Virus record (IMG/VR): IMGVR_UViG_3300028888_000074
Coordinates: 1 to 64,000 of that record
Source of the DNA: a virus
Taxonomy: Duplodnaviria; Caudoviricetes
Strand: one strand, 5' to 3'
DNA: 64,000 nucleotides
Shown: piece by piece, positions 117-17,332 of the stretch
How positions within the stretch are numbered: the first letter of the stretch is position 1
Layout of the letters: every line of letters begins with the position of its first letter
The notes under the pieces: generated by a model
Database searches by the model: none
Told to the model about the DNA's origin: nothing
What the model saw: only the letters and a program-made list of their open reading frames with translations
Program-made: the position numbers and the translations under genes

Positions 117-200
117 CTGCCAAACTGACATGACAAACCGACATTGTGTCATACTGACAAATTGTCAGCGACAAGTGACATTGTGTCATGTGGCATGACA
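117..200. promoter_or_regulatory. TGACA-N3-TGTCA palindrome cluster 1 (putative activator/enhancer sites)
   Basis: Boxes at 139-151, 155-167 and 176-188, directly upstream of the sigma54 motif at 209. Confidence 0.65.
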
Positions 201-260
201 ATATATGTTTGGCATGGTGTTTGCATATTATATGGTGAGCAATTAAAATTTAGAATTATT

Positions 261-671
261 ATGACACAAAAAGAAAAAGAATTGTTACTCCAAGTCATTT
301 GCACAATGTTGCCGTATGGAGTTAGAGTTAAACTTAATGGGCGTAGAGAAACATCAAATAAATTAACAATTGATTGGCTTTATGCATATTCAAGACACAT
401 TGAAGATATTAAGCCATATCTTCGTCCAATGTCAAGTATGACAGAAGAGGAAAAGGTAGAATATGACCAGTTGTGTTATAATTGCCAAGAGCAAGATAGC
501 GTTGATTACAATATAACCCAACTTGATAGGACACAACTTATATATGTTATTGATTGGCTTAACGCCCATCATTTTGACTACCGTGGTTTAATCCCTATGG
601 GATTGGCATTAGAAGCACCAGAAGATATGTATGCAACGAAATCAAAATCAACAACAACAAAACAATTGTGA
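261..671 (+). CDS. Phage hypothetical protein, MTQEEK..LPYG..KPYLRPMSSMT..HHFDYRGLI family (paralog 1 of 3)
   Basis: ATG at 261 after the AATTAAAATT leader; motifs shared with 25131 and 26015. Confidence 0.8.
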   Translation: MTQKEKELLLQVICTMLPYGVRVKLNGRRETSNKLTIDWLYAYSRHIEDIKPYLRPMSSMTEEEKVEYDQLCYNCQEQDSVDYNITQLDRTQLIYVIDWLNAHHFDYRGLIPMGLALEAPEDMYATKSKSTTTKQL

Positions 672-748
672 TTATGTTGGCAGCAATAATATTGATAGGC
701 AGTTTCGGTGCAGTGGTTTATTCCTGCATTGGAAAATAGTGACACCAA

Positions 749-762
749 TACGCAGATGCGTA
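749..762. promoter_or_regulatory. Palindromic operator TACGCA-NN-TGCGTA (other copies at 9580, 15160, 18120, 18952, 20939)
   Basis: Six near-identical intergenic 14-bp palindromes. Confidence 0.7.
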
Positions 763-798
763 CACATATTTGGCACGATAATTGTATAAACGATATGT

Positions 799-834
799 GG
801 GTCAAGGTGCGCCACCCGAATCAAAGTGCGCACC
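799..834 (+). promoter_or_regulatory. Conserved 5' leader hairpin (other copies at 9085-9118 and 15184-15219)
   Basis: GGTCAA followed by stem GGTGCGC/GCGCACC; the 9085 copy has stem GGTCTC/GAGACC. Confidence 0.55.
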
Positions 835-855
835 GCAACAATTAAAATTAGAATT

Positions 856-1119
856 ATGGAACAGACAAAAGAACAAAAAGTTTATGTACTCACGACACAA
901 TGGAGTTTGGATTATGAGCAAGGCAGCAATGTAGGTGTGTATGCCACAAAGGAACTTGCCCAAAAGGAGATGAAACGTGACTATGAGTATATGTGTGAGG
1001 AATATCCCGATTGGGTTAGAAGTATTGATGATAATTGTGCTGAAATGCAGGAAGAGGGTGATTATACCCGAAATCATTGCGATTGGCAGATAAAGGAAAT
1101 GAAAGTAATCACCGAATAA
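856..1119 (+). CDS. hypothetical protein
   Basis: ATG after conserved leader and sigma54 motif. Confidence 0.75.
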   Translation: MEQTKEQKVYVLTTQWSLDYEQGSNVGVYATKELAQKEMKRDYEYMCEEYPDWVRSIDDNCAEMQEEGDYTRNHCDWQIKEMKVITE

Positions 1120-1353
1120 AAAACAAGTATCATGGATGAGATTATCAATATGCTAACCAAACCTTTCGTTACGGGAGAGTATGTCTATTTTTGGCGGTTG
1201 GAATGGTGGAAATGGTTTATAGTAGAACCACCAAACCGAAAGCACCTCATCGGGAAGCTATATTGGAGGTGCAAGTAAAGTGAATTGGCACGCTTTTTGC
1301 ATATATCGCAACACAATTAACAAGTTTTATTCACAATTAAAATTTAGATTATC

Positions 1354-1782
1354 ATGGAAAAACAAGCAGTCATTTCATTCAGCGTTGCAACAACAATAAG
1401 CGGAAATTCTATCGCTGAAATCAAGCGTAAATTTGAAAATATGAATATTCCGTTTGAGTTCATTGAATTGTTGTCCGTAGAGGATGCGAAGACAAGAGAT
1501 GACTTGATGGAGGTTTGGAATGATGACCGACCACTCTGTGAGTTGGAGGATGAATTGAGAGAACAATTTGATGATTTTGACACCGATACATTTTGTATTG
1601 ATGATTATGGCATCAAACACAATGGTGCTTTAATCACCCACATTACAAAGCCCAACGATGCGGATATTTGCTTTTGGAGTTGTAGTAGAACTCCGTATTG
1701 TGATAAGGATGCCGAAGAAATCCAAATCACAGACTACGACCAAAGAAGAGAAATCATTATTGAAATCCTGCAAAATTTGTAA
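1354..1782 (+). CDS. hypothetical protein
   Basis: ORF with leader and sigma54 motif. Confidence 0.75.
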   Translation: MEKQAVISFSVATTISGNSIAEIKRKFENMNIPFEFIELLSVEDAKTRDDLMEVWNDDRPLCELEDELREQFDDFDTDTFCIDDYGIKHNGALITHITKPNDADICFWSCSRTPYCDKDAEEIQITDYDQRREIIIEILQNL

Positions 1783-1803
1783 ACAATTAAAATTCAGATT
1801 ATC

Positions 1804-2031
1804 ATGGCAAAAATCAGTAAAGAAGAAATCAAGAACCTCAACGGAAAAAAATATGAGTTTGAGCAGGCGGTATATTGGAACGGAGATGGTTGGGCGAGCG
1901 TGTGCGGATATTTCACCGAAAAAGGTGTTGTCCGTTTCGCGGGGACACCGATGGAAACCATAGAAACCTATGATGAAATTGACGATTACATCCTGCAAGT
2001 CTGCATTGACAATATCGTTGATAACGATTAA
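1804..2031 (+). CDS. hypothetical protein
   Basis: ORF with conserved leader. Confidence 0.7.
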   Translation: MAKISKEEIKNLNGKKYEFEQAVYWNGDGWASVCGYFTEKGVVRFAGTPMETIETYDEIDDYILQVCIDNIVDND

Positions 2032-2099
2032 GACGAGACATTATAATAATTAAAATTAGCAAAACAATCATTAATTAAAATTTCATTAAAAAAAGTATT

Positions 2100-2783
2100 A
2101 TGAAGAAGATTTTATTTGTATTAACAATGGTTTTAATGAGCGTATGCTCTTTTGGTCAAGAATACAAAACAATTGATATTCCTTTGTCGGTGGAATATGG
2201 TCTTGTCCCGAAACAAGAAGTAATCAAAAGTTTTGACACCATTGAAAAATCGTATCAAGTTAAAGAATTGGTTACATCAAAAATTTCCAATCGTGGTTTT
2301 AAGACCGATTCGGATGGCTCAATATTGACAATTCTAACCCTTGAAGATGGACATATCGTCACACTTTCAGTCGCAAACAATCTAACCATCGCAGGAGATA
2401 TTATTGGTAGTGATTATAGTTATTACATTACACGAACCAAATGTTATCCGTATTATAAAGAAAAATACGATACCATCTATGTTAAGGTGAATGCTCCGAA
2501 ATATGTAAACCTCGCTTTGTTAAAAGTGAAGTCGGAAATGTATATTGACAACAAAACCCATTATTCAGCAAAAATCTATTCCTATTCACTTGATAAGGCA
2601 TTTTGGATTGAAACCGACAATTATTTTTATAAAAAGCACGAAAACGACAAGCGTATTACAAAAAGAAAAGCAAGATTGAACAAATACTATATGGAATATT
2701 CCGATTACAAGATGTTTTTGAATTTCGTATATACCGCATTTAGAATTAAAAATTATAATTTCATTGAAACACCATCCAATTAG
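2100..2783 (+). CDS. hypothetical exported protein
   Basis: N-terminal signal peptide MKKILFVLTMVLMSVCSFGQ. Confidence 0.75.
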   Translation: MKKILFVLTMVLMSVCSFGQEYKTIDIPLSVEYGLVPKQEVIKSFDTIEKSYQVKELVTSKISNRGFKTDSDGSILTILTLEDGHIVTLSVANNLTIAGDIIGSDYSYYITRTKCYPYYKEKYDTIYVKVNAPKYVNLALLKVKSEMYIDNKTHYSAKIYSYSLDKAFWIETDNYFYKKHENDKRITKRKARLNKYYMEYSDYKMFLNFVYTAFRIKNYNFIETPSN

Positions 2784-2873
2784 ATAATCAAAATATTCGT
2801 GTCATGCCGATGAGGTTTGGCACGATTTTTGTTTATATGGAGATGTATTAGTAACAATTAAAATTACGATATT

Positions 2874-3989
2874 ATGAAAATCACATTAAAAGAAATTACA
2901 ATCGGAGAAGTTGCAAAAGGTTTTGTTGATAACAACGAACAAGGTGTTGTCGGTTATGACGGATTGTTGAATATCCGACCCGCATACCAAAGGGAATTTG
3001 TCTATAAGGACAAACAACGCAATGCGGTCATTGACACGATTATGAAAGGTTTTCCGCTTAATGTTATGTATTGGGCGAAAAATGCAAATGGCACTTATGA
3101 ACTCCTTGATGGTCAGCAAAGAACAATATCTTTCTGCCAATTTGTCAGCGGTTGGTTCTCCGTGACTGACACAAATGGCAATCCGAAGTATTTTCAAAAC
3201 ATGACTGAAAAGGAGCAATCCGATTTCCTTTCATACAAATTGTTCATCTATGTTTGTGATGGGGCAGACAACGAGCGTCTTGATTGGTTTCGCACTATCA
3301 ATATAGCAGGCGAAAAACTGACCGACCAAGAACTTTTGAACGCTAATTATGTCGGTGCTTGGTTGAGCAGCGCAAAACAAAGGTTTTCAAAGACAAATTG
3401 TGTGGCATACCATATTGGCAACAAATATGTCAATGGCAGTCCGATTCGGCAGGAATACCTTGAAACCGCTATTAAATGGGTTTCCGATGGCAAGGTTGCT
3501 GAATACATGGCAGCGCATCAATTTGATGAAAATTCCGATGAATTATACAATCACTACCGCAATGTGATTGATTGGATTGAAAAAACATTCACCACATACC
3601 GAAAGGAAATGAAAGGTTTGGATTGGGGTAAATTGTATAAAACCTATCACAAAAACGAATATGATAGTGAAAAACTTGAAGAACAAGTGAAAGAGTTGAT
3701 GATGAACGATGAGGTCACCGACAAGAAAGGCATCTATGAATATGTGTTGAGTGGAAAGGATGAGTATATCGCACGCAAATTGTCAAAACGGACTTTCTCC
3801 AATGCTGACAAACGAACTGCCTATGAAAGACAAAATGGCATTTGCCCTAAATGCGGTCAGCATCACGAATTTTCCGAAATGGATGGAGACCACATTGTCG
3901 CTTGGTGGAGAGGAGGCAAAACAACACTTGACAACCTTCAAATGCTCTGCAAAAAGTGCAATGGTGTGAAAAGCGGAAAGACTGAATAA
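2874..3989 (+). CDS. DUF262 (ParB/GmrS-like) domain plus C-terminal HNH endonuclease
   Basis: IRPAYQREFVY, LLDGQQRT, FRTINIAG; C-terminal CPKC..DHIVAW..GG.T...NLQMLCKKCN. Confidence 0.85.
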   Translation: MKITLKEITIGEVAKGFVDNNEQGVVGYDGLLNIRPAYQREFVYKDKQRNAVIDTIMKGFPLNVMYWAKNANGTYELLDGQQRTISFCQFVSGWFSVTDTNGNPKYFQNMTEKEQSDFLSYKLFIYVCDGADNERLDWFRTINIAGEKLTDQELLNANYVGAWLSSAKQRFSKTNCVAYHIGNKYVNGSPIRQEYLETAIKWVSDGKVAEYMAAHQFDENSDELYNHYRNVIDWIEKTFTTYRKEMKGLDWGKLYKTYHKNEYDSEKLEEQVKELMMNDEVTDKKGIYEYVLSGKDEYIARKLSKRTFSNADKRTAYERQNGICPKCGQHHEFSEMDGDHIVAWWRGGKTTLDNLQMLCKKCNGVKSGKTE

Positions 3990-4061
3990 CTTTGGCATAC
4001 TTTTTGCATATATGGGAATGTCAGTATATTTATAGAAACAACAATTAAAATTATAATTACT

Positions 4062-4958
4062 ATGGCAAATAACAATTCAAACCTGCACAATGCAAAAACC
4101 GCAAAAAACGATGAGTTTTACACCCAACTTTCCGACATTGAGAAAGAACTGAACAACTACAAGGACTTTTTCAATGGAAAAATCGTTTATTGCAATTGTG
4201 ATGACCCAAGAGAATCCAATTTTTTCAAATTCTTCTCATTGAACTTTGAGAGACTTGGCTTGAAAAAACTCATCACTACGGGGTATAAGAAAGACGGACA
4301 CGGGGTTGTTTTTGTCTATGAGGGTGACAAGAACGGAAATAGAATGGTTGATGATGATGAGGTTGTTGTGACCGAATTGAAAGGCAATGGTAGTTATGAT
4401 TCCGAAGAGTGCATTGAATTTCTAAAAGAATGCGATGTTGTTGTGACCAACCCACCATTTAGTTTGTTCCGTGATTATGTGAAACAACTGATGGACTACA
4501 ATAAGAAATTTTTAATCATTGGAAGCCAAAATGCTATCACATACAAGGAGATTTTCCCTTACATCAAAAATAACCAACTTTGGTTAGGAATGAATTGGGT
4601 GAAAGAGTTTATCCAACCTAACAAGGAAATAAAAAAATTTGGAAACATTTGTTGGTTTACCAATGTGGAAAACAAAAAGAGAAACAAACCTTTGGATTTG
4701 TATAGAAAATACAATCCAACTGACTATCCGAAATACGACAACTATGATGCTATTGAGGTCAGCAAAGTAACTGATATTCCCGAAGATTACAACAGAGTGA
4801 TGGGTGTACCTATTACTTTCCTTGACAAATATTGTCCTACACAATTTCAAATTGTAGGAATTGACCGCTATGTTGAAGATAATCCAAATTATGGACATCG
4901 TTTCAACATCAATGGAAAAGAATGTTACGCACGAATTTTAATTAGGAAACTCGCTTAA
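4062..4958 (+). CDS. Adenine-specific DNA methyltransferase, EcoRI-methylase family
   Basis: AKTAKNDEFYT, VYCNCDDP, catalytic VTNPPFS, MGVPITFLDKY. Confidence 0.88.
   Translation: MANNNSNLHNAKTAKNDEFYTQLSDIEKELNNYKDFFNGKIVYCNCDDPRESNFFKFFSLNFERLGLKKLITTGYKKDGHGVVFVYEGDKNGNRMVDDDEVVVTELKGNGSYDSEECIEFLKECDVVVTNPPFSLFRDYVKQLMDYNKKFLIIGSQNAITYKEIFPYIKNNQLWLGMNWVKEFIQPNKEIKKFGNICWFTNVENKKRNKPLDLYRKYNPTDYPKYDNYDAIEVSKVTDIPEDYNRVMGVPITFLDKYCPTQFQIVGIDRYVEDNPNYGHRFNINGKECYARILIRKLA
4838..4858 (+). repeat. Left 21-bp inverted repeat inside the methylase gene
   Basis: TACACAATTTCAAATTGTAGG is the exact reverse complement of 5042-5062. Confidence 0.9.
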
Positions 4959-5062
4959 TCAATAATCTTTTATAAACACCCTTTCCATTGATTTCAAATT
5001 GACCAAGTGATGCTCCATTTCCATCAATATCGTGTTCGTGACCTACAATTTGAAATTGTGTA
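4942..5062 (-). other. Silent inverted alternative C-terminus of the methylase (TQFQIVG-HEHDIDGNGASLGQFEINGKGVYKRLLIKRVS*)
   Basis: Homologous to the expressed tail TQFQIVG..FNINGKECYARILIRKLA* and in frame after the repeat. Confidence 0.8.
5042..5062 (-). repeat. Right 21-bp inverted repeat
   Basis: CCTACAATTTGAAATTGTGTA. Confidence 0.9.
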
Positions 5063-5115
5063 CAATTAACGAAAAAAATATGACATTTATTGCATAATCC
5101 TAATTTTAATTGTAA

Positions 5116-5171
5116 TGACAATGTGTCACCTTTAACTGACAAGGTGGCACATTTTTTATGACAATATGTCA
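5116..5171. promoter_or_regulatory. TGACA-N3-TGTCA cluster 2
   Basis: Boxes at 5116, 5137 and 5159 (21/22-bp spacing) before the sigma54 motif at 5181. Confidence 0.65.
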
Positions 5172-5233
5172 GTTGAGGTTTTGGCATGGTATTTGCATAA
5201 TGGTAAATGTATAACAATTAAAAATTTAGTGCT

Positions 5234-5572
5234 ATGAGCGAAAATATTGAAAAAATCATTAAGAACGCAAAAGATAATAACTATAACACAATGGATATGG
5301 TTATTGCCGCCAACTCAATTATGGTGGAAGAATTGAAAAACAAAATCAAAGAAAACGGAGGTAGCATTTCATTCACCAAACAATTCTCAAATCCATTTAT
5401 GGTATATTGTGGAACTGAGGTGAGCGAGGTCAAGGTGACCAAAGTTTATTTTGATGAAAATGAAGAAATTAAAATTGACGGGCAAATTGTTTATGGTGAT
5501 GATACCATTTATACATTCGATATTGACGAATTTGTGATGGGGCAGATATACAACATTCTCATAGTGATATAA
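5234..5572 (+). CDS. hypothetical protein
   Basis: ORF with sigma54 motif and leader. Confidence 0.75.
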   Translation: MSENIEKIIKNAKDNNYNTMDMVIAANSIMVEELKNKIKENGGSISFTKQFSNPFMVYCGTEVSEVKVTKVYFDENEEIKIDGQIVYGDDTIYTFDIDEFVMGQIYNILIVI

Positions 5573-5625
5573 CAAATTGGCACACTATTTGCATATAGGG
5601 AAATGTAACAATTAAAATTAGAATT

Positions 5626-5937
5626 ATGGCAACATCAAGAGAAATCAAAGAAAAAGCAATCCAAAGTTTAATAGAAATTATTTCCTCTTGTGTCAAGAGG
5701 AGTGGTGGAAAAATAACAACCCGTGTCAATATTGGGGAGGCAAGAACACACAACGAAGTGTTCACCCGAACCATTAGGGATGTGTTTGATTACAAACACT
5801 CAAACAAAGACGCTTTACGAAATTCCGAATACGATTTGTATTATAGCGAAGATTGTTGCCACGATGCACCGATTGAAGAATTGGGATTCTATCAATTGTT
5901 TGAGATTGCATACCAATGTGAAAATATTAACAATTAA
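5626..5937 (+). CDS. hypothetical protein
   Basis: ORF with sigma54 motif and leader. Confidence 0.75.
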   Translation: MATSREIKEKAIQSLIEIISSCVKRSGGKITTRVNIGEARTHNEVFTRTIRDVFDYKHSNKDALRNSEYDLYYSEDCCHDAPIEELGFYQLFEIAYQCENINN

Positions 5938-5949
5938 GATTACAAGATT

Positions 5950-6207
5950 ATGAATAGCATTGAAACCTTACCAATCAGCATTGAGCGCAAAGGTGGCATA
6001 TATACATTAGATGTATATGTTACCGCATGGAACAAGTTGTGCGTATCTTATAGAAACATTGTGGTCCCTGCTGACAAGTATTGTTCGGTAGTGATTGAGC
6101 CCGACAATTATTCATCAAAACCAAACATTGAAAATGAATCAATTGGGAATGCCCGAAATCTTGACGATGCGGTGGAAATGATTAAAGAATATATTGAAAA
6201 CAATTAA
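5950..6207 (+). CDS. hypothetical protein
   Basis: ORF in co-oriented array. Confidence 0.7.
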   Translation: MNSIETLPISIERKGGIYTLDVYVTAWNKLCVSYRNIVVPADKYCSVVIEPDNYSSKPNIENESIGNARNLDDAVEMIKEYIENN

Positions 6208-6209
6208 TT

Positions 6210-6455
6210 ATGAATACCGAGAGAAAAAATTATATTTGTGAAAATGAGGATGAGTACAAGGAATTGCTATCATCCTTTGTGGCAACCAAAGCGTATGCCA
6301 AAATCAAGGAACACAACCTAAATGAAAATCAATCGTGGAAATTGATGGAATGGGCAATCAATTATTCCATCAATCTATATGAGAAAAGTGAAACGCTAAA
6401 CTATTATGTGATGGATTTGGATTTTGAAAAATACATCATTGAAAATTTGGCATAG
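6210..6455 (+). CDS. hypothetical protein
   Basis: ORF in array; stop overlaps the next sigma54 motif. Confidence 0.7.
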   Translation: MNTERKNYICENEDEYKELLSSFVATKAYAKIKEHNLNENQSWKLMEWAINYSINLYEKSETLNYYVMDLDFEKYIIENLA

Positions 6456-6510
6456 TATTTGCATATTGCATAATGTCAATTTAATTTATTCACCAATTAA
6501 AATTTGAATT

Positions 6511-7065
6511 ATGGCAAAGAAACAAAAAACCTATCGTGTGAGTTTATCATGTGTCTATAACGGATATATGAATGTAAAGGCGGACAATGAAGACGATGCT
6601 CTTCGCAAGGCAAATGAAATGCTTAACTGCGAAACCTTGTCGGAATTTCCCCAATATGTGGATATGCCTTATGGAGAATTTCAATTTGGTGAGGCAACTG
6701 CCGATTTCATTGAAGAAACCTATGAGGATGATGACAATATGTCACCCGATTCTGACATTGTGTCAGACCAATGCGCAAGCGGTGTTGTCCGTGAGTATGG
6801 TGTGATGTTTTGTGATGAGGGTATTTTCGGGGATGATGAAGAACACGAATACGATGTTGATTGTGCCGATGGTGCTGCCGTTGCACACGCAAAGAACGAA
6901 AAAGACCCACAAACATTAGTACTGACCTATCCGAAGATGGCGGAGGTTGTCAAAAATGTGAAGATGGTAGATGATATTGGTGATTATCGTGGATTGCTCT
7001 ATAACGAAAAAATCCACTACGCTGATGTTATGATGTATTGTGGCAAGATTGTCGCACGGATGTAA
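6511..7065 (+). CDS. hypothetical acidic protein
   Basis: ORF with sigma54 motif and leader. Confidence 0.75.
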   Translation: MAKKQKTYRVSLSCVYNGYMNVKADNEDDALRKANEMLNCETLSEFPQYVDMPYGEFQFGEATADFIEETYEDDDNMSPDSDIVSDQCASGVVREYGVMFCDEGIFGDDEEHEYDVDCADGAAVAHAKNEKDPQTLVLTYPKMAEVVKNVKMVDDIGDYRGLLYNEKIHYADVMMYCGKIVARM

Positions 7066-7086
7066 GGTGGAATTTTAATTGTTGTC

Positions 7087-7122
7087 AGCGTGCCATGCTT
7101 TTATGAGTTTGGCACGCTTTTT
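7087..7122 (+). terminator. Intrinsic terminator whose 3' arm is the sigma54 -24 box (also about 2798, 10105, 15874)
   Basis: AGCGTGCCA...TGGCACGCT followed by TTTT. Confidence 0.6.
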
Positions 7123-7168
7123 GCGTATAGTAATATGTAAACGGATTGTCTAACTTAAACCACCGACA

Positions 7169-7322
7169 ATGAAACCACCTTAATAGCATAGGACATAAAA
7201 ACCAATAAGGCATGGGTTATGCCGAAAAGGGCTGAACATTTAGTAGTGTAGTAGGAGAGTGTACTCCGTCACACGAAAAGCGTTTAGGAGAGTGTACTCC
7301 AACCTACCCTTTATTTTTTTAT
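7169..7322 (+). ncRNA. Candidate structured RNA, copy 1, with micro-ORF MKPP*
   Basis: Downstream of sigma54 motif 7109; about 150-nt homology to 15946-16105; two GGAG-AGTGTA-CTCC hairpins; ends in a U-tract. Confidence 0.55.
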
Positions 7323-7324
7323 AG

Positions 7325-7410
7325 GGACACATTGTCAGTCCTGCCATGACACTTTGTCAGTATGACATTTTTGTCATGTGTGTCATGCCACATTGTCAGT
7401 ATGTGTGACA
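7325..7410. promoter_or_regulatory. TGACA-N3-TGTCA cluster 3
   Basis: Boxes at 7325, 7347, 7363 and 7386 before the sigma54 motif at 7418. Confidence 0.65.
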
Positions 7411-7466
7411 AACAAGTTTGGCATGATTATTGCATGATGTATGGAGAATAATTAAAATTTCCGATT

Positions 7467-7754
7467 ATGAGCAACAATACAAACAAAGAAAAAGCAAAGG
7501 AGTTATTTTACAATTTTTGCAAAGAGAAATCTTGTGATGGTAGAGTTATATGCACATTTTGTCCAAGAGCAAAGGCATTAGCACCATTGATTGAAATGGC
7601 AGAGTGGAAAGAAAAACAAATGATTGAGAGGGCGCAAGATTTTATTGCCACTTGGTTTTATGAACATCCGCATGAACAAAAATTTATATGCTCCGATGAA
7701 TTTGGAAGTATTGACCAATTGCTTGAAAAGTTGAAAAAAGCAATGGAAGAATAA
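7467..7754 (+). CDS. hypothetical protein
   Basis: ORF with sigma54 motif. Confidence 0.75.
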   Translation: MSNNTNKEKAKELFYNFCKEKSCDGRVICTFCPRAKALAPLIEMAEWKEKQMIERAQDFIATWFYEHPHEQKFICSDEFGSIDQLLEKLKKAMEE

Positions 7755-7832
7755 AATTCCCGAATATGAATTTTAGTTTGGCACACTTTTTGCATATAGT
7801 AGTGTGCAGTAATAACAATTAAAATTAGAATT

Positions 7833-8192
7833 ATGAAACAAGCGACAAAATTGGTAGCAGCGAAAAAAGAAATCGGAAGAGTAATGCAGATTGCTGAAAC
7901 GATAAGAACACAAATCAAATACCCGAACAAATATGTGTTTTGCTCTTGGGGAGCACACAACTTCCAATTTGCGGTCACGGATGACAATAACTACCCTGCA
8001 TTGCGTTTCAAGGTGAACGGAATGAAATTCAAGGGTTATGTGCATATCATCTACAACCCTATGGATTACTATGAGATTGAGTTTGTCAGCACTCATGGCA
8101 ATTTGAAGAAGAGAGTGGAAATGTGCTATTTTGACAATTTGCAGGAAATCATTGACAATTATGTTGAGAAAATTCCCGAATATGAATTTTAG
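7833..8192 (+). CDS. hypothetical protein, flanked by a ~32-bp direct repeat
   Basis: AAAATTCCCGAATATGAATTTTAGTTTGGCAC at 7753-7784 and 8169-8200. Confidence 0.78.
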   Translation: MKQATKLVAAKKEIGRVMQIAETIRTQIKYPNKYVFCSWGAHNFQFAVTDDNNYPALRFKVNGMKFKGYVHIIYNPMDYYEIEFVSTHGNLKKRVEMCYFDNLQEIIDNYVEKIPEYEF

Positions 8193-8261
8193 TTTGGCAC
8201 GGTAATTGCGGATAATCAAGTACAATTAACAATATCATTAACAAACAAAAACAACACAATT

Positions 8262-9053
8262 ATGAAAAAATCACAAAACAACAACGCTGAAACTGAAACT
8301 CTTTTTGGTATTACCACATTTACCGATAAAGCAAATGAGTTGTGGTTGGTAACCGACCCAACCGACTATGATGATGAACTCATCGGAACATATCAAGTGG
8401 AATATGATGTCATTGACAAACTCGCCACAAAAGATGAAGCGGTCAAGTATTTGGTTGAAGAGGGCGATGATGGGGAAGATTTGTTGGGCGAAACCGACAA
8501 TCTTGATGTGGATAAGATGAAAGAAGACGGCTATCTTGGGTATTATTATGATATGGGAGATAGTGTATTGATGGTTTGTCTATTTGACAAGTCTATGGCG
8601 AAAAAGATTGACGGAGAAGAGGCAAGGTTTGATGACGATGGAAAAAAATTATATCGTTACCCAATAACTTGGTCGGAAGAGGATGGCGGTTGGTTGGTTG
8701 TGTATGCTCATTCTTACGAGGAGGCAGAACAACTCTATGATGACGGAGAGTATGAAGTTGAAGCCTCCGAAGAGGACAAAGAGTATGTTTGGGTGTATTC
8801 ATCATCCTTTGAGAACGGAGCAAAATTCAAAAACGAATGGGGTGTAAAACTCTTCAAGAATCGTTCTGCTGCGGAAAAATGTTTGAAAGAAGATGCGGAG
8901 ATTAAGAAATGTATGTTCTGTGATGTGTATAACGATGGTGTTATCATTGAAAAAGAAACGGACAAAGTAACAATCTCCACAAAAAACGATGGTTGTGTTG
9001 ATGATGAATGGAAAGGAATGATAACCAAAATGTCAGTCAGCAAGGCAAAATAA
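8262..9053 (+). CDS. hypothetical acidic protein
   Basis: 263-aa ORF with sigma54 motif. Confidence 0.78.
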   Translation: MKKSQNNNAETETLFGITTFTDKANELWLVTDPTDYDDELIGTYQVEYDVIDKLATKDEAVKYLVEEGDDGEDLLGETDNLDVDKMKEDGYLGYYYDMGDSVLMVCLFDKSMAKKIDGEEARFDDDGKKLYRYPITWSEEDGGWLVVYAHSYEEAEQLYDDGEYEVEASEEDKEYVWVYSSSFENGAKFKNEWGVKLFKNRSAAEKCLKEDAEIKKCMFCDVYNDGVIIEKETDKVTISTKNDGCVDDEWKGMITKMSVSKAK

Positions 9054-9141
9054 GTTTGGCACGATAATTGCATATAGTATAATCGGTCAAGGTCTCACAC
9101 CGACATTAAGCGGAGACCACAATTAAAATTTCAATAGTATT

Positions 9142-9510
9142 ATGGCAACAAACAAAATGAATCAAATTGTAAACAACACGAACCTTGAAATCTACAAGGC
9201 GAAAGCGAGAACCATTTTTGCGGAGGCGAAGAACGCATTGGTGAACGATGAAATCACCATGAGCGATTTGCTGAAATTGGACTTGGAATTTGACAAGGCG
9301 GTCATGGGTGTTGTTGAATGTGAGAAGAAAAAGGCGAAACTGAACAATGAGGAGGTTAAGAACAAGAGATTGCTTGACATTGCGAGAGACATCGTGTATG
9401 GCGAAGATGATGAGTGCGATGAGGAATGTGAAAACGAAGAAGATGATACCGATGACAATTCCCATGTGAATGAAGTCTTCGGGATGGTGTTCGGAGCATT
9501 TGGATTCTAA
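9142..9510 (+). CDS. hypothetical protein
   Basis: ORF with sigma54 motif and leader hairpin. Confidence 0.72.
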   Translation: MATNKMNQIVNNTNLEIYKAKARTIFAEAKNALVNDEITMSDLLKLDLEFDKAVMGVVECEKKKAKLNNEEVKNKRLLDIARDIVYGEDDECDEECENEEDDTDDNSHVNEVFGMVFGAFGF

Positions 9511-9664
9511 CGATTGGCAACATGGTGGCGGGGTTGTGTTTGCAATCTTGTCATCGTTTGTTTTATCACGAAACAATAATACGCAACTGCGTACATACAT
9601 TTTGGCATGATTATTGCATATAGGTGAATGACAAATTAAGTAATAACAATTAAAATTCACAATT

Positions 9665-10084
9665 ATGATTACATTTACTATACCATCATTTATTTCCTAC
9701 ACAATCTTCGTGATTGTATTGTCATTCTTAATGTTCATTTCGCTCCACTACATCATTGATGATATAAAAAGCAATAAGAAGTCAAAAAAGAAAATGGTCA
9801 AATCGCCTTTGAAGATTGGTGGAATATATGGAAGAAGACCATTGTATGGTAATGATAATGACCCATTTTCCCCTATTCGTGAGTATGATTATTATGTGGC
9901 AATCCTTGACATAAAACCATCAAGGGATGGAGATTGTGAATACTGCCAATATGTCTTTCTAAATGACAAAATGTCACCATATAGCACTTATTGTAACACT
10001 ACAATTTTGAGCGAAAAAACCAATTACTTTGATGGTTGGGAATATATAAAGGATATTGACTTGAACACCATAAAAATTTCATAA
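9665..10084 (+). CDS. hypothetical membrane-anchored protein
   Basis: N-terminal hydrophobic helix. Confidence 0.72.
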   Translation: MITFTIPSFISYTIFVIVLSFLMFISLHYIIDDIKSNKKSKKKMVKSPLKIGGIYGRRPLYGNDNDPFSPIREYDYYVAILDIKPSRDGDCEYCQYVFLNDKMSPYSTYCNTTILSEKTNYFDGWEYIKDIDLNTIKIS

Positions 10085-10189
10085 TCTTAATTTTAATTGT
10101 TGTCAGCGTGCCACTCCTAATAAGTTTGGCACGCTTTTTGCATATAGCATAATACAATTTAGTATTAACAAATTAAACAAATAGGCAAT

Positions 10190-10738
10190 ATGATAATTAT
10201 ACACATGGACACGCAGCAGGACACACATGTCCTTGATGTGCTTTACAAAGGATTTTCCGAATCGGACAACATCATCATGGTCAATCCGACAAGGGTTGAG
10301 GTTGAGGCAACTCTTAACAAATATCCCAATGAAAATGTCATGTTGATTGGTCATGGCGATTATTTTGGGTTATGGGCAAGTGATAACGACTTTTACAATC
10401 CAACGATGTATGTCATTGACGGGCATAATGTGGACTTGCTGAAAAATAGGGAAATCATTGGTATTTGGTGCTATGCGAGTTATTTTGCAAAAAAGCACAA
10501 ATTGAGAGGTTTTTTCACCTATATGTTTGTGTCAAACCCATCGGAGGCGAAAATGCTCAATTTCGGAGAATATTCCGAAAAATATTGTAATGAGCAGAAT
10601 GTGAAGTTCTGCAACCAAATCAACCAACTGATAACCGAGAATGTCAATATGGCAGATTGGACTGACAAACTGACACACGATGATGTCAATTTTGTCAATT
10701 ACAATTATAAGCATCTTGAATATTTGTACGGATATTAA
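10190..10738 (+). CDS. hypothetical protein
   Basis: ORF with sigma54 motif; LIGHG...IWCYA motif. Confidence 0.75.
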   Translation: MIIIHMDTQQDTHVLDVLYKGFSESDNIIMVNPTRVEVEATLNKYPNENVMLIGHGDYFGLWASDNDFYNPTMYVIDGHNVDLLKNREIIGIWCYASYFAKKHKLRGFFTYMFVSNPSEAKMLNFGEYSEKYCNEQNVKFCNQINQLITENVNMADWTDKLTHDDVNFVNYNYKHLEYLYGY

Positions 10739-10812
10739 AACAATCACTTTGGCACGATAATTGCACATAGTATAGTGACAATTTAGTAATAACAATTAAA
10801 ATTAGAAATTTT

Positions 10813-11178
10813 ATGAAAAAGAACGAAATCACAAAGCAAATCAGCAAGGTCATGGATATGCAGGCGGAGGTTGCCGCAAAAATGGTTTGTGACATCAAAG
10901 ACACTTTGAACAATGATTTTGATGGAAGCATTGATTGGGTGGACTACGAAACCGAAGACGATGAGGTTTGGACACCAACAATGAACTATGTTGACTATTG
11001 GTCATGTACTTGTGAGGAGGGTGTACACATGGAGCAAGTAATGTGCAATGAGGATGGTGAAGTCTATATCACATTGGAAAATGATGAAACCACAAACATC
11101 AATGATTTGAATTTTGAAGACCTCAACACATTATACATTGCAATTGCAAACCTTTGCGAATATCTTGGAAAAGAATAA
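10813..11178 (+). CDS. hypothetical protein
   Basis: ORF with sigma54 motif and leader. Confidence 0.75.
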   Translation: MKKNEITKQISKVMDMQAEVAAKMVCDIKDTLNNDFDGSIDWVDYETEDDEVWTPTMNYVDYWSCTCEEGVHMEQVMCNEDGEVYITLENDETTNINDLNFEDLNTLYIAIANLCEYLGKE

Positions 11179-11239
11179 AGTTTGGCATGGTTATTGTATA
11201 TAGTATGGTGTAGTATTAACAATTAAAATTTCAATTATT

Positions 11240-11938
11240 ATGGCAACAATTGACACAAAAGAAATCAACGAAAGAATAACAAAATATTATTCTCATACAA
11301 GGGAATTGCGTCAAGACATGGTTTCAGCAATCACCAATATGCTGAAAGATATGGGTGGCGAAATCTCGCTTACCGACAAACAATATGACGATACATTGTG
11401 TATTGCCTATGATGGCGGCAATCATGCGGAATACGCTTCCTCCATGTGTGAGGAGGTGGAATCAATCAAAACCTTGCAAGACGAAGATAATTTTTATGTT
11501 GAGGTTGCTGGCGAGGATTACATTGAAAGTCATAGATTGATTTTTGACGATGTGTGCGCTATTTGGGATGTTGTTTCATCAAGATACAACGATTTCAATG
11601 AGAATGTCGGTCAGTACAAAGAGGTTGTTGAAATCGCCAACAAGAATGAACTTAAAATACAAATGAATTTCAGTCTTAATGACGAATTGGATATTGTCAA
11701 ACAATTCGGTGAACCAATTGACCTTGAAACTTTGGAAAATCCCGCCTGCGTTGAGGTTAAAAGTTATTTGTATGTTGATGTCTTGGGTAATCAAACAATT
11801 GCCGAATTAAGAGGTAGTGACGAAAAGTTTTCCAAGTACCAAAACATTGTCGCTAATTTGATGAAAACCAAGAAACCGCAATATCTCATCGGTGCGAAAG
11901 ACGGAATTGTGCAAGGTCTATTGTGGTGCGAGTTCTGA
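11240..11938 (+). CDS. hypothetical protein
   Basis: ORF with sigma54 motif and leader. Confidence 0.78.
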   Translation: MATIDTKEINERITKYYSHTRELRQDMVSAITNMLKDMGGEISLTDKQYDDTLCIAYDGGNHAEYASSMCEEVESIKTLQDEDNFYVEVAGEDYIESHRLIFDDVCAIWDVVSSRYNDFNENVGQYKEVVEIANKNELKIQMNFSLNDELDIVKQFGEPIDLETLENPACVEVKSYLYVDVLGNQTIAELRGSDEKFSKYQNIVANLMKTKKPQYLIGAKDGIVQGLLWCEF

Positions 11939-12013
11939 TTTTTGGCACGATTATTGCATATAACACAATACAAACAATTAAAATTAATATTAACAAATTA
12001 AATTAAAATTATT

Positions 12014-12775
12014 ATGGGACAATATTATAAAGCGTGTTTCGTAAACACAAAAAAGGACAAAGTTGAAGAATATTTTGAATCTTGGGACACAAATAGTGGT
12101 TCTAAATTAATGGAACATTCGTATGTTGGCAATAAATTTGTGATGAATGTCACCTACAAAATGATTAATTCACCGAAGAGACTTGTTTGGGCGGGAGACT
12201 ATGGGGATGAAATTGTTGGAGAGGATAATTTCTATGACCTCACAAATAATGCGGAAAAATCAGAACCATTTGAAATTGATATGATGAAACATGTACTTGA
12301 TGCAAACACCATCTATATCAATCACGACAAAAAGGAATGGTTTGACCTCAAAAAGCAGACAATTCCCGCTATGAGAGGTTGGAGTGGAATTGTACACCCT
12401 CTCCCAATACTAACCGCTGACGGAAATGGTCGTGGAGGTGGAGACTATGGTGGTGCGAACATGGAACTTGTCGGCACTTGGAAAGGTGATTTAATTGAGA
12501 TTTCAGATACCATCCCCGACAATTATATTGAGATTGAGCCGTGGTTTACGGAAATGTCACAAAAAGAAATTGATGAATATTTCAAAGAGTTGGAAAACCC
12601 AAAAAAGAAATACACAATCAAAATCAATTATACAACATCGGAAGAATTTGTTGTAGAGGCACACACCGAAGAAGAAGCTTTAACACTTGTGGAGGATATG
12701 AATCCCGATGAAACACAAGTTTATGAGAACCTTACCCTTGACGGAAGTCCGCATGTGATTTTTTGTGAAGATTAA
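12014..12775 (+). CDS. phage hypothetical protein (MGQYY..KLMEHSY..WAGDY..HPLPILT.DGNGRGGGDY)
   Basis: ORF with sigma54 motif. Confidence 0.8.
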   Translation: MGQYYKACFVNTKKDKVEEYFESWDTNSGSKLMEHSYVGNKFVMNVTYKMINSPKRLVWAGDYGDEIVGEDNFYDLTNNAEKSEPFEIDMMKHVLDANTIYINHDKKEWFDLKKQTIPAMRGWSGIVHPLPILTADGNGRGGGDYGGANMELVGTWKGDLIEISDTIPDNYIEIEPWFTEMSQKEIDEYFKELENPKKKYTIKINYTTSEEFVVEAHTEEEALTLVEDMNPDETQVYENLTLDGSPHVIFCED

Positions 12776-12816
12776 TTTGTTGCTTTTTCATAGTTTGTAA
12801 GTTTTAATTAGTTATT

Positions 12817-12909
12817 TGTCATGGGTGTGTCATTTTGGCACACCTTTGTCATTTTTGTCATGTGACATTATGTACTGACAATTTGGCAAACATACATGAC
12901 ATTATGGCA
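12817..12909. promoter_or_regulatory. TGACA-N3-TGTCA cluster 4
   Basis: Boxes including 12876 and 12897 before the sigma54 motif at 12919. Confidence 0.6.
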
Positions 12910-12982
12910 TTTATAAGTTTGGCACGCTTTTTGCATATAGGGTAGTGACAATTTAGTATTAACAATTAAAATTAGAATTATT

Positions 12983-13579
12983 ATGATTAAGATTGAAATT
13001 CAAGCAGAAGATTATCATATTGCAGATGCAATGAGTGATTTGGTTATGAGAATTGAAAATGGAAACCTTTTGGATTCGGTGTATTTGGATAGAGCGGATA
13101 GTGTTACCATCCGTGATGACAATTATACTGCCACATTGTCAAAGGTAAAGCAAATTGAGAAACCTAAAATGTCAGCACACAAGTCGGAACTTATTGACGA
13201 AATCAAACTCTACGCAGGTCTTGAATATTCAATTGATGACTTGTGGAATGGTGAGGATTACGAAACCGAAGACGGAATGGTCAAGGAAGATGGTGTAGAA
13301 AGATTTACCAATGATTGGAAACACATCTTTGAAACCTATGAGGAAATTGATGAAGATGTTTTGGAAAACATCTTGGAGGCTGTCAAGAAACACCCTCTCG
13401 TCACCACAAAGAGAAATGTCCTTTTGGAAGACGATGAAACCGATTTTGGTGGCATATCGTTCATCGGTGAAACCCTGCTTGACTTCATGCTTTCAGTCCA
13501 CATGCCTTTCACCTCCACAAAGGAAGAAATTGACAAGGCATTGAAAGAATGTGGCATAAGACCACTTTTTGAAAAATAG
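12983..13579 (+). CDS. hypothetical protein
   Basis: ORF with sigma54 motif and leader. Confidence 0.78.
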   Translation: MIKIEIQAEDYHIADAMSDLVMRIENGNLLDSVYLDRADSVTIRDDNYTATLSKVKQIEKPKMSAHKSELIDEIKLYAGLEYSIDDLWNGEDYETEDGMVKEDGVERFTNDWKHIFETYEEIDEDVLENILEAVKKHPLVTTKRNVLLEDDETDFGGISFIGETLLDFMLSVHMPFTSTKEEIDKALKECGIRPLFEK

Positions 13580-13644
13580 TTTGGCATGGTATTTGCATAT
13601 AGCATAGTGACAAATCAGTATTAACAATTAAAATTAGAATTATT

Positions 13645-14028
13645 ATGACAATCAACATTCCCCAAAACACCTATCAATCTCCAACCACCATCAATCCCGA
13701 AATGGTAGAACTAATCTGCAAGGTATTCATTCGTGGTGATGAATATAAGGCTACATCATGCAATATTATTGCGGCAGATTATTGTATTGACACATATTCC
13801 GTTAAATATCCTCGTTTCTATAATGGATATAGAAGTGGGATTGGGGAAAAACACGAAGAGAGAAAATTCAACGGAGCGGAAATGAATGCGGCTTTTAATG
13901 CACTAATCCAAGCAGGTTATTATATGTTCAAAACCTACGATAAGGGTGTTGTATATAAGTGCAAAAGAGTGCCTTATGATAATGACGGATGGCAGAGAGT
14001 GTATTCATTTGACACTCAAATTGACTAA
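13645..14028 (+). CDS. hypothetical protein
   Basis: ORF with sigma54 motif and leader. Confidence 0.75.
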   Translation: MTINIPQNTYQSPTTINPEMVELICKVFIRGDEYKATSCNIIAADYCIDTYSVKYPRFYNGYRSGIGEKHEERKFNGAEMNAAFNALIQAGYYMFKTYDKGVVYKCKRVPYDNDGWQRVYSFDTQID

Positions 14029-14062
14029 TTTAAATAACAATTAAAATTAAAATCATTAAATC

Positions 14063-14278
14063 ATGGATAAGAGAAAGATTGAAACTGCCGATGGCATTGT
14101 ATTATGCAAGACCGCATTTGACACCGACACAAATACCGATTACATTGAGTTCTACCTTCACAATGGCGAGGAGGAAAGCGTGTTCCCTTATGACTATGTT
14201 GGTGAAAGCACAATGATGAAAGACTTTTCAGCATACACCGATAGTGAATTGGTTGGTCTCTATTATGAGAGTGTATAA
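14063..14278 (+). CDS. hypothetical protein
   Basis: ORF with leader. Confidence 0.68.
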   Translation: MDKRKIETADGIVLCKTAFDTDTNTDYIEFYLHNGEEESVFPYDYVGESTMMKDFSAYTDSELVGLYYESV

Positions 14279-14346
14279 AACTTTGGCACACTTTTTGCAT
14301 GTAGTATAGAGACAATTTAGTATTAACAATTAAAATTAAAAAGATT

Positions 14347-15153
14347 ATGGAAAAGAACATCAATGAAATCATTTTATTCGCAAACATTAAGGGTGAAAAT
14401 GGTCGTGAAGTCCGTGAGGCAAGAATCGTTGAACTCAACGAAAGACCTTGTTATTACTATTTCAATAAATCAACAAGCAAGTTAGATTATGTTCGTGGTT
14501 GTGGATTTTGTTTCACGCTTGAAATCGCAGGTATTGGCAAGGTATCGTCATACAAATTCTTAAATGACTACAAAGGTGGTTTATATAAGACATTAAACCT
14601 TGCATTACAAAACGATGAAGACTATACATTATTTAGGAACGGACATAATGAAAACATACTTAATATCGGTTGTATTGCCGATATATACTATGATGATTTG
14701 AATCTGACACATCCTTGCACTACATTGGAGTTTGAGTATGTGCGTGTGAATAGTTATGTCAATACTACTCATTTCCGTTTGAAACCAATCAGTTATTATT
14801 GGGATGGTACGAAGACCCAACGCTATGAAATTAAGTGGAAATTCCAATTTGACCTCATTGATAACAAGATTAAAATGTATGAGGGTGGTCGTAATTATGA
14901 AGACAAATTAGGTAAGTTGTATGCCACAAAGGAAATGTGTGAGAACGACAACAAACCGACCATTGTGCGATTTGACAACAAGCCAAAAGAAGTTGAAAAG
15001 ATTGTGACCTTTGAAATCACATTGGGGGTGAAAGTTGATTCTTCAAGTAATGAAGAGGATGCCATTTCCGCAGCAATGTATAAGATTAGAACCTGCGATG
15101 ATGAAGTCCTATTTGAATCTTGTGTCTCCTGCACAACCTATCCAAACAAATAA
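14347..15153 (+). CDS. hypothetical protein
   Basis: 268-aa ORF with sigma54 motif. Confidence 0.78.
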   Translation: MEKNINEIILFANIKGENGREVREARIVELNERPCYYYFNKSTSKLDYVRGCGFCFTLEIAGIGKVSSYKFLNDYKGGLYKTLNLALQNDEDYTLFRNGHNENILNIGCIADIYYDDLNLTHPCTTLEFEYVRVNSYVNTTHFRLKPISYYWDGTKTQRYEIKWKFQFDLIDNKIKMYEGGRNYEDKLGKLYATKEMCENDNKPTIVRFDNKPKEVEKIVTFEITLGVKVDSSSNEEDAISAAMYKIRTCDDEVLFESCVSCTTYPNK

Positions 15154-15246
15154 CCATAATACGCAACTGCGTACATACACTTTGGGTCAAGGTGCGCCGC
15201 CCGAATCAAAGTGCGCACCATAACAATTAATTAAAATTTGAATAAT

Positions 15247-15558
15247 ATGAACCAAGACAATATGCCCATCGCAACAAAATTGGCGGAGGTTTTACTTAAA
15301 AAACAAGATGGTGATTTCACACCGATTACCTTTGACTGCCTAATCCGTGTGAATGGAAACTACAATACCGAAAGTGTGACCATGTGCTATTGCACGGAAG
15401 AGGAGATGGAAACCCTTATGGCGAACCCATCGTTTGACGATACCATTTTCTTCTACATTGTGGTTGGCGAGAACCCTATCAGCAACCTTTTCAACGAGGA
15501 GGATTTTGAAATCGTTGATGTATATGAGAATAGTGTGCAGGATGTTCTTTGGATATAA
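15247..15558 (+). CDS. hypothetical protein
   Basis: First ATG after the leader. Confidence 0.7.
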   Translation: MNQDNMPIATKLAEVLLKKQDGDFTPITFDCLIRVNGNYNTESVTMCYCTEEEMETLMANPSFDDTIFFYIVVGENPISNLFNEEDFEIVDVYENSVQDVLWI

Positions 15559-15580
15559 CAACAACTAAAAACAATAGAGT

Positions 15581-15841
15581 ATGGACTATATCATTATCAA
15601 AGAAGACAAGACACCGCTTTGTTTTGATGACAATTCAATTGTTGTCTATGGGGACAAGCATGATGCACTTGAAGACCTTGCGGAAAACGACTTCGGTCTT
15701 GTTGAGATTGAATATGACGGGAATGCCGCAACATTGTATTTTGATGGCGAAATCGTTGGTTGGTTTGAGTATGACACAAATGACGAAGACGATTACCAAT
15801 CAAAATTGAAAGAATCCGTTTCAATGATGTTTTTGTCATAA
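15581..15841 (+). CDS. hypothetical acidic protein
   Basis: ORF in array. Confidence 0.68.
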   Translation: MDYIIIKEDKTPLCFDDNSIVVYGDKHDALEDLAENDFGLVEIEYDGNAATLYFDGEIVGWFEYDTNDEDDYQSKLKESVSMMFLS

Positions 15842-15945
15842 TATCAGTAAATAGTTTGTTTTAATTGTCGCTTGCGTGCCATGCCGATGAGGTTTGGCAC
15901 GCTTTTTGCATATACCAATATGCAAACCAATTAATAATTTAAATT

Positions 15946-16105
15946 ATGATTAGACCACCTTAATAGCATAGGACATAGTATCAGTAAGGCATGGGTTGTG
16001 CCGACAAGGGCTGAACATTGGATGAAAGTGTAGTAGGAGAGTGTACTCCGTTACACTTAAAATGGGTAGGAGAGTGTACTCCGTCACACCCTTTATTTTT
16101 TTTAT
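15946..16105 (+). ncRNA. Candidate structured RNA, copy 2, with micro-ORF MIRPP*
   Basis: Downstream of sigma54 motif 15894; homologous to 7169-7322. Confidence 0.55.
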
Positions 16106-16107
16106 AA

Positions 16108-16192
16108 GGACATGTTGCCAGTCCTGCCATGACACATTGTCACTATGACATAATGTCAGTGTGGCATGACAAATTGTCATAGGACATGACAA
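16108..16192. promoter_or_regulatory. TGACA-N3-TGTCA cluster 5
   Basis: Boxes at 16108, 16130, 16146 and 16167 before the sigma54 motif at 16200. Confidence 0.65.
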
Positions 16193-16254
16193 ATAAAGTT
16201 TGGCACGATAGTTGCATATAGTAGGGTGTAATAATGATAATTAAAATTTGAATT

Positions 16255-16431: not shown

Positions 16432-16444
16432 AATTTGAATTAAT

Positions 16445-16681: not shown

Positions 16682-16688
16682 AACCAAT

Positions 16689-16919: not shown

Positions 16920-16940
16920 CCAATTCAAATTCAAATCACT

Positions 16941-17273: not shown

Positions 17274-17332
17274 CAATGTTTGGCACGATTTTTGCTGTAA
17301 TATTCACCAACAATTAAACACAAAAAAACAAC

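Follow-up and report, generated by a model that had tools for sequence, protein, structure and literature searches.

How does a phage fire an early region built from promoters that stay silent without a dedicated activator? The question is raised by the IMG/VR record IMGVR_UViG_3300028888_000074, a giant rumen phage detected in sheep, goat and bovine gut metagenomes. The window analysed here, i.e. the whole stretch of DNA under study, is the first 64 kb of a single-piece contig of 115,947 bp (CheckV completeness ∼32%); its GC content ranges from 0.31 to 0.43, and a megablast search of the first 20 kb against GenBank phages gave zero matches. Its first 19 kb carry an array of sigma-54-type promoters, and five of these are immediately preceded by clusters of the palindromic box TGACA-N3-TGTCA. 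Sigma-54 promoters require an ATP-driven activator, so a phage with a 19-kb early region run by sigma-54 must get one somewhere. A first, sequence-only reading had taken the clusters for helically phased enhancers, shared by the whole array and possibly mimicking a host regulon. Our comparisons make it fairly likely that these clusters copy the control site found at host sigma-54 chaperone promoters and would recruit the host regulator, most likely a bacterial enhancer-binding protein (bEBP) without a sensor domain.

Both elements of the module are strongly over-represented. TGGCA-N6-TTGCA occurs 18 times in the window compared with 0.24 expected, and the shorter TGGCA-N6-TTGC at 22 sites, all on the plus strand between 210 and 18927, with zero sites in the rest of the 116-kb contig; two weaker copies start at 2818 and 11183. 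Exact TGACA-N3-TGTCA boxes were found 12 times, compared with 0.18 expected from dinucleotide-preserving shuffles (maximum 2), and boxes with at most one mismatch 24 times, compared with 4.16 expected. The boxes gather in five intergenic gaps, which are the largest intergenic gaps of the array. When the 125 bp before each of the five corresponding promoters were pooled (625 bp), they contained 36 TGACA/TGTCA half-sites where 2.8 were expected (P = 2e-27), so the five intergenic clusters that had been noticed before sigma-54 motifs are real. All five sit upstream of TGGCAY-N5-TTGCA on the same strand, in agreement with the GG-N10-GC signature of a -24/-12 promoter. Each contains two to four palindromic boxes, and its last half-site ends 8-10 bp 5′ of TGGCA, a much tighter link than the 10-35 bp first claimed (Table 1). 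Beyond the array, boxes were only isolated (45539 and 70039). Half-site clusters at contig 72.9, 78.1 and 79.9 kb were discarded, as they are not N3 palindromes and look like chance occurrences in coding sequence.

Table 1. Boxes and sigma-54-type promoters of the array (window positions; mismatches are to TGACA-N3-TGTCA).
Feature	Position	Strand	Details
Promoter array	210..18942	+	22 strict and 2 weaker sigma-54-type promoters, one per small gene
Box cluster 1	126..200	+	Eight half-sites; boxes 139 (1 mismatch), 155, 176; half-site 196
Sigma-54-type promoter TGGCATGGTGTTTGCA	210..225	+	9 bp past cluster 1; ATG 261
Box cluster 2	5081..5171	+	Boxes 5116, 5137 (1 mismatch), 5159, spaced 21 and 22 bp; half-site 5081
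Sigma-54-type promoter TGGCATGGTATTTGCA	5182..5197	+	10 bp past cluster 2; ATG 5234
Box cluster 3	7325..7410	+	Boxes 7325 (1 mismatch), 7347, 7363 (N4 spacer), 7386 (1 mismatch); half-site 7406
Sigma-54-type promoter TGGCATGATTATTGCA	7419..7434	+	8 bp past cluster 3; ATG 7467
Box cluster 4	12817..12909	+	Four direct TGTCA, then three TGACA; degenerate boxes 12876, 12897, 21 bp apart
Sigma-54-type promoter TGGCACGCTTTTTGCA	12920..12935	+	10 bp past cluster 4; ATG 12983
Box cluster 5	16108..16191	+	Boxes 16108 (2 mismatches), 16130, 16146, 16167; half-site 16187; spacing 22/16/21/20 bp
Sigma-54-type promoter TGGCACGATAGTTGCA	16201..16216	+	9 bp past cluster 5; ATG 16255
Exact box pair, intragenic (6732 and 6753)	6732..6765	+	21 bp apart, in ORF 6511-7065, 345 bp upstream of promoter 7110
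Single exact box	9964..9976	+	In ORF 9665-10084, 150 bp upstream of promoter 10127
Five half-sites	10642..10697	+	3′ end of ORF 10190-10738, 50-105 bp upstream of promoter 10750

The spacing of the boxes only partly bore out the proposed helical phasing. All the box pairs listed by the sequence-only reading are present, with start-to-start distances of 21 or 22 bp: both boxes are exact in 155/176 and 16146/16167 (21 bp each), one mismatch was found in each box of 12876/12897 (21 bp) and in the first box of 7325/7347 (22 bp), and the first box of 16108/16130 has two mismatches (22 bp). Phasing therefore holds for some pairs and fails as a strict rule, since spacings of 16 bp (139/155, 7347/7363 and 16130/16146) and of ∼20 bp recur, interleaved with those of 21-22 bp, and the boxes cannot all lie on one face of the helix. 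Clusters 1, 3 and 5 have a common layout of 22/16/21-23/20 bp followed by 13-14 bp to TGGCA, which in cluster 3 reads 22/16/23/20 bp. Cluster 5 is a paralogue of cluster 3, the two being partly paralogous copies (repeat families D12 and D15).

The same box was found at the chaperone promoters of Bacteroidales, which we treated as the likely host order and whose genomes were compared as candidate hosts. The groES and dnaK loci were taken from ∼40 Bacteroidales genomes, and the 150 bp upstream of the TGGCAY element, which lies 47-89 bp before the start codon in nearly every one of these upstream regions, were scored for 5-mers. TGACA/TGTCA ranked first at both genes, with 50 occurrences compared with 9.7 expected at groES (P = 5e-20; at least one at 20 of the 23 promoters) and 53 compared with 8.0 expected at dnaK (P = 7.5e-26; at least one at 23 of 26). 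Half-sites of the host lie most often 8 bp apart, the N3 spacing, as they do in the phage; host pairs at this distance include both palindromes and direct repeats. Relative to TGGCA, the host half-sites concentrate between -10 and -40 and between -60 and -90. The host boxes are just as close to their promoters, so that this closeness, unusual for an enhancer, belongs to the host system and is not specific to the phage. The suggested link between the box and Bacteroidota chaperone genes was thus correct for Bacteroidales, as was the idea of host-regulon mimicry: the scan near host sigma-54 motifs that had been suggested recovered the box at groES and dnaK, and the phage boxes are the element that precedes the sigma-54-type promoters of these two genes.

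An exact tandem pair was found at groES of a Muribaculaceae metagenome-assembled genome: the boxes TGACAtttTGTCA and TGACAgcaTGTCA have a spacing of 22 bp, TGGCACGGTACTTGCA comes 10 bp later, and groES-groEL lies behind it. This locus was one of only two retrieved when one genome per species in GTDB was scanned for exact tandem boxes followed by TTGGCA, which indicates that perfect tandem pairs are rare in bacteria and that the host element is usually more degenerate. Across the phylum the picture at groES is mixed, with CIRCE in some classes and TGGTAC-N5-TTGC without nearby boxes in others. At three loci of Bacteroidota outside Bacteroidales (L142, L147 and L151), the groES leader carries a palindrome TGACA-N4-TGTCA downstream of a sigma-54-type promoter; it can extend to an 8-bp stem (gacTGACAaatcTGTCAgtc) and might serve as an operator or form a hairpin in the RNA. 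That chaperone genes of Bacteroidota are under the control of sigma-54 has already been published. Sigma-54 promoters (motif SM4) were mapped at groES-groEL, lon, dnaK, grpE-dnaJ and htpG of Flavobacterium psychrophilum, in a study that also predicted three activators (Guerin et al. 2021, PMC9723704), and a 2025 survey reported sigma-54 promoters enriched at chaperone and protease genes across Bacteroidota (PMC12316311). Neither paper mentions the upstream TGACA/TGTCA box.

The phage took over the control module and not the chaperone cargo. The five cluster promoters drive no protein-quality-control gene recognised by Pfam, and the ORFs behind them (from 261, 5234, 7467, 12983 and 16255) gave no Pfam match over the cut-off. 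No useful Pfam match was obtained for 30 array proteins either, and hence no DNA-binding protein is encoded beside the clusters. In the whole 116-kb fragment, profile searches yielded no match over the cut-off to PF00158, PF04552, PF02954 or PF13730, i.e. neither a sigma-54 DNA-binding domain nor a genuine bEBP domain nor a Fis-type helix-turn-helix (HTH). A PF00158 match at contig 106.7 kb (14 bits) covers the Walker A region only and is not a bEBP. The divergent relative G107 is complete (361,445 bp, CheckV 100%; patchy nucleotide identity of 65-90% to the phage), and it also contains no bEBP, no sigma-54 and no HTH_36 initiator. PF00158-like matches of ∼850 aa in relatives, including the only such match of G107, proved to be two-ring ClpB/ClpC-type ATPases and not bEBPs; ATPases of this type (∼784-850 aa) are present in G107 (L359:1075-3429, minus strand) and in the large phages G108 and G109. 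Sigma-54 and bEBP genes are thus absent from both the fragment and the complete relative. Because it encodes neither the sigma factor nor the activator, the phage probably borrows a host stress-response switch.

Candidate hosts carry both missing components. All five Bacteroidales genomes examined have one copy of rpoN and exactly one sensor-less bEBP, a protein of 406-422 aa in which Sigma54_activat begins at residue 12-24, with a GSFTGA loop and a C-terminal HTH_8 (domains at residues 12-178 and 366-401). Its gene and groES share a strand in seven Bacteroidia genomes, where it is located 1.8-3.5 kb upstream. Its occurrence in all host genomes tested and its synteny with groES in these seven make this sensor-less bEBP the best candidate for a box-binding activator. 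A phyletic comparison of its occurrence with the type of groES promoter was suggestive, not clean.

These components suggest how the module may work. TGACA/TGTCA boxes ending 8-10 bp before a -24/-12 promoter would be read by host RNA polymerase with host sigma-54. The boxes would attract whichever host protein regulates groES and dnaK, most likely the sensor-less bEBP with its AAA+ domain, GSFTGA loop and C-terminal Fis-type HTH, and its ATPase would open the adjacent closed promoter complex. By this means the phage could fire at least five early transcription units without a sigma factor or activator of its own, and it may couple them to the protein-folding stress state of the host. We infer the identity of the box-binding protein, its role as an activator and not a repressor, and the way in which box-less promoters are switched on: there, the activator may need no site close by, or else they respond to something other than this activator.

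Several observations weigh against this proposal. A cluster is missing from 17 of the 22 strict promoters (18 half-sites were found there compared with 9.5 expected, mostly at promoters 10750 and 8195), and sigma-54-type arrays with few or no box clusters exist in other phages (L202, L268, L276, L284 and L297), which indicates that boxes are not needed for every such promoter. The 200 bp directly upstream of the sensor-less bEBP gene contain no tandem boxes in the five Bacteroidales genomes. The -12 element of Bacteroidales promoters is often TTGA or TCGC and that of the phage the canonical TTGCA, and the host genomes compared are those of candidate Bacteroidales. Conservation speaks for the proposal, although with limits: the relatives G105/G106 keep clusters orthologous to those of promoters 7419, 12920 and 16201, with half-sites 96.8% identical and spacers 87.7% (Fisher P = 0.004), in a test that covers close relatives and is only modestly significant. 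Finally, the boxes abut the promoter: the last full box is centred ∼50 bp from the expected start site, a position that would also suit a repressor.

That last point leads to a different use of the same boxes, namely as operators of a host heat-shock repressor or a phage repressor that binds beside the -24 element and blocks the five phage promoters and the host chaperone promoters until a signal arrives. We regard this as unlikely. It fits the position of the boxes, which stop 8-10 bp short of TGGCA in the phage and occupy -10 to -40 at the groES and dnaK promoters of the host, closer than classical enhancers. Bacterial heat-shock operons are as a rule controlled negatively through inverted repeats (HrcA/CIRCE, HspR/HAIR), and CIRCE indeed occurs at the groES genes of other classes in the phylum. 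A corollary, which we find similarly doubtful, is that the bEBP acts without a specific site, and this would also explain the 17 phage promoters and the whole arrays of other phages that have no boxes. However, no candidate repressor was found, and none is needed for tight control, as sigma-54 promoters stay silent without their activator. The DNA-binding HTH of the sensor-less bEBP must have a target, and no element other than the boxes is conserved upstream of the chaperone promoters; moreover, the boxes do not overlap the -24/-12 core.

The box-less promoters also bear on the model first put forward for this locus, in which the five clusters are shared long-range enhancers that loop to all sigma-54 promoters within a few kb. 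Classical enhancers at -80 to -150 allow looping, and those of the NtrC type can work over kilobases. Every box-less promoter of the array lies at most ∼3.8 kb downstream of a cluster or of an intragenic box. The intragenic sites, which the sequence-only reading had overlooked together with the five half-sites before promoter 10750, are partly conserved: G107 retains boxes matching 6753 (identical) and 9964, and four of the five half-sites at 10642-10697 are also in a relative's locus (L080). Conservation of the pair at 6732-6765, which lies 345 bp before promoter 7110, and of box 9964, which lies 150 bp before promoter 10127, would suit distant action, but may instead reflect coding constraint. 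The arrays of the five phages named above have few or no clusters, and host boxes are promoter-proximal. The proposal of five hubs that serve 25 promoters thus found no support in that form. As expected of an enhancer, each cluster has at least two dyad sites, and the same site is found at Bacteroidales groES and dnaK promoters; however, the phage boxes span about -35 to -115 from the expected start site and not -80 to -150 or further, the proximal ones being just ∼35-55 bp away from it and the distal ones up to ∼110 bp. Classical looping from a distance was therefore not borne out, as the boxes abut the promoter in host and phage alike, closer than classical enhancers. We keep the shared-enhancer model as a possibility that is improbable, though worth bearing in mind.

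A third reading emerged from an IMG/VR scan for two boxes 21-22 bp apart, which returned at least 116 loci with a GC content of 0.29-0.70. Among the matches listed, 43-48 of 116 loci have the array inside a ∼260-aa gene, at 35-60% of its length; the protein has an N-terminal HTH_36 domain (PF13730), the neighbours are SSB, DnaB and DnaC-like genes, and loci L003, L007, L019, L041, L046 and L052 are of this type. Origin iterons within the initiator gene are the arrangement of lambda O. The 13-bp word is thus not specific to sigma-54 biology, and the clusters of the phage might be replication-origin sites for an HTH_36 (lambda O-like) winged-helix initiator. The likeness lies in the same word and in the box pair of ORF 6511-7065, whose relative position of 0.40-0.46 resembles that of HTH_36 iterons. 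In six box pairs of the phage the word recurs at 21-22 bp, as in those iterons, with 16- and 20-bp spacings mixed in. In contrast to the phage boxes, which stand before promoters in a phage family with no such initiator, those iterons lie inside the initiator gene and lack a sigma-54 motif. PF13730 has no match in the fragment, and a hidden Markov model (HMM) built from 40+ initiators matches nothing there or in G107. ORF 6511-7065, tried as a divergent initiator with its own iterons, encodes an acidic product without HTH or HMM match, and weak initiator-HMM matches to ORFs overlapping the clusters were dismissed, as translation of the boxes by itself produces peptides of similar sequence. It is implausible that 16 kb should hold five to seven separate origins, and, as at host groES, a constant 8-10 bp separates each cluster from its sigma-54 promoter. 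An origin function is accordingly very improbable, and we return to the boxes as copies of a host control site.

The array is intergenic in most of the other 68 listed loci. Six AT-rich phages among the matches listed (L017, L030, L042, L056, L062 and L086) carry boxes ∼45 bp from a ClpB/ClpC-type ATPase gene, followed by TTGGCAT, and at five more of these matches (L021, L051, L055, L103 and L116) the boxes lie ∼80 bp from an Hsp20 gene. Phage-borne ClpB-like or Hsp20 genes with boxes and TTGGCAT are genes that kept a host-type heat-shock control region. In the six AT-rich phages, the ClpB-like genes adjoin a UVR-motif protein. As to the arrays, L202, L268, L276, L284, L297 and L250 have 8-16 TGGCAY-N5-TTGC promoters each, one per small gene, with their own flanking consensus and few or no box clusters, and in L268 every array promoter can also be read as TTGACA-N17-TATAAT. 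An IMG/VR pattern scan for the promoter plus TATA gave mostly single chance matches. In the phage itself, a sigma-70 promoter/terminator scan flagged TTGGCA-N16-TATAGT, which is uninformative, as Bacteroidota sigma-A does not use that consensus.

In the divergent relative G107, a cluster (TGACActtTGTCAgtaTGACActtTGTCAgtTGTCA...TGTCA) again precedes the first promoter of its array, and the cluster after a duplicated small-RNA-like element has decayed to two TGTCA. Other features of the array concern its leaders and gene content. The leader AACAATTAAAATT(T)AGAATTATG abuts the start codons of most array genes (240-260, 837-857 and 5607-5627, for instance), and the leaders have no Shine-Dalgarno-like sequence, which fits a Bacteroidota host. 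Promoters 7110, 10127 and 15895 (7083-7125, 10100-10142 and 15868-15910) have a common upstream element, cttaattttaattgtTGTCAGCGTGCCA, which holds an inverted -24 copy ∼15-20 bp before TGGCACGC; two of these three promoters precede a duplicated structured element with a tiny ORF. Contigs of relatives from goat and bovine gut join 7414 to 7775 and 8191 to 9055, and each joint deletes exactly one promoter-plus-gene cassette, with breakpoints in the repeated promoter sequence. The promoter copies seem to act as recombination points at which gene cassettes are gained and lost. Promoter 18927, the last one, overlaps the 5′ end of an ORF (18796-19890) whose product has sigma-70 domains (Pfam). In two sheep metatranscriptome runs, contig depth was 20-50 across the array and 190-500 at 18-20 kb, the rise of 5-20x above the array level extending over 18010-20000 with ORFs 18168-18536 and 18796-19890; two DNA runs were flat. 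This contrast in contig depth gives a weak hint on expression.

Comparison with known systems sets the phage module apart in several respects. The phage promoters have the same -24/-12 consensus as the published Bacteroidota chaperone promoters (PMC9723704, PMC12316311) and share boxes, N3 pairing and closeness to the -24 element with the groES and dnaK promoters sampled here. They differ from that regulon, apart from the -12 sequence discussed above, in driving small genes of unassigned function and not chaperones, and in that the element is present in 5-7 copies with more numerous and cleaner palindromes. PspF is a sensor-less bEBP of a stress response, with upstream activating sequences at E. 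coli pspA. The candidate host activator is also sensor-less (AAA+ from residue 12, C-terminal Fis-type HTH) and would control a stress regulon through tandem dyad sites upstream of a sigma-54 promoter. In contrast, PspF sites lie at about -80 to -126 with bending by IHF in between, and the phage boxes at about -35 to -115 leave no room for a loop proximally. Phage early promoters such as A1-A3 of T7 and those of T4 mimic strong promoters of the host and are used by its sigma-70 polymerase. Here, too, early genes would be run by unmodified host polymerase from host-consensus promoters, but it is an activator-dependent sigma-54 pathway that appears to be borrowed, and the candidate sites of its activator are copied as well. 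In the literature searched, we found no description of the box or of a phage copying promoter and box together in multiple modules, nothing on phage sigma-54 arrays, and no named heat-shock regulator of Bacteroidota or binding site for one.

The clusters point to the source of the activator, since the boxes are shared with chaperone genes of the likely host order. They yield a candidate operator for the heat-shock regulon of Bacteroidota, a dominant gut and rumen phylum, and, in the sensor-less bEBP encoded beside groES, a candidate for its regulator. To define the binding motif, the phage sites, clean and present in multiple copies, are better suited than the degenerate host sites, and the modules could serve as stress-responsive or strong promoters in genetic tools for Bacteroides and Prevotella. 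More speculatively, and with a low likelihood in our estimation, the ∼20 high-quality sites brought in by each incoming genome might act as a sink for the single heat-shock activator of the host. It is likewise a rather slim prospect that the phage both times its early programme by host folding stress and starves the host chaperone regulon of its activator. If true, the phage would hijack the regulation of a stress response by way of copied enhancers, with no transcription factor of its own, and such phages would pinpoint which regulator and which operator control heat shock throughout the phylum Bacteroidota. More generally, the locus would provide an example of a phage that probably borrows an activator-dependent stress circuit of its host in place of a factor of its own.

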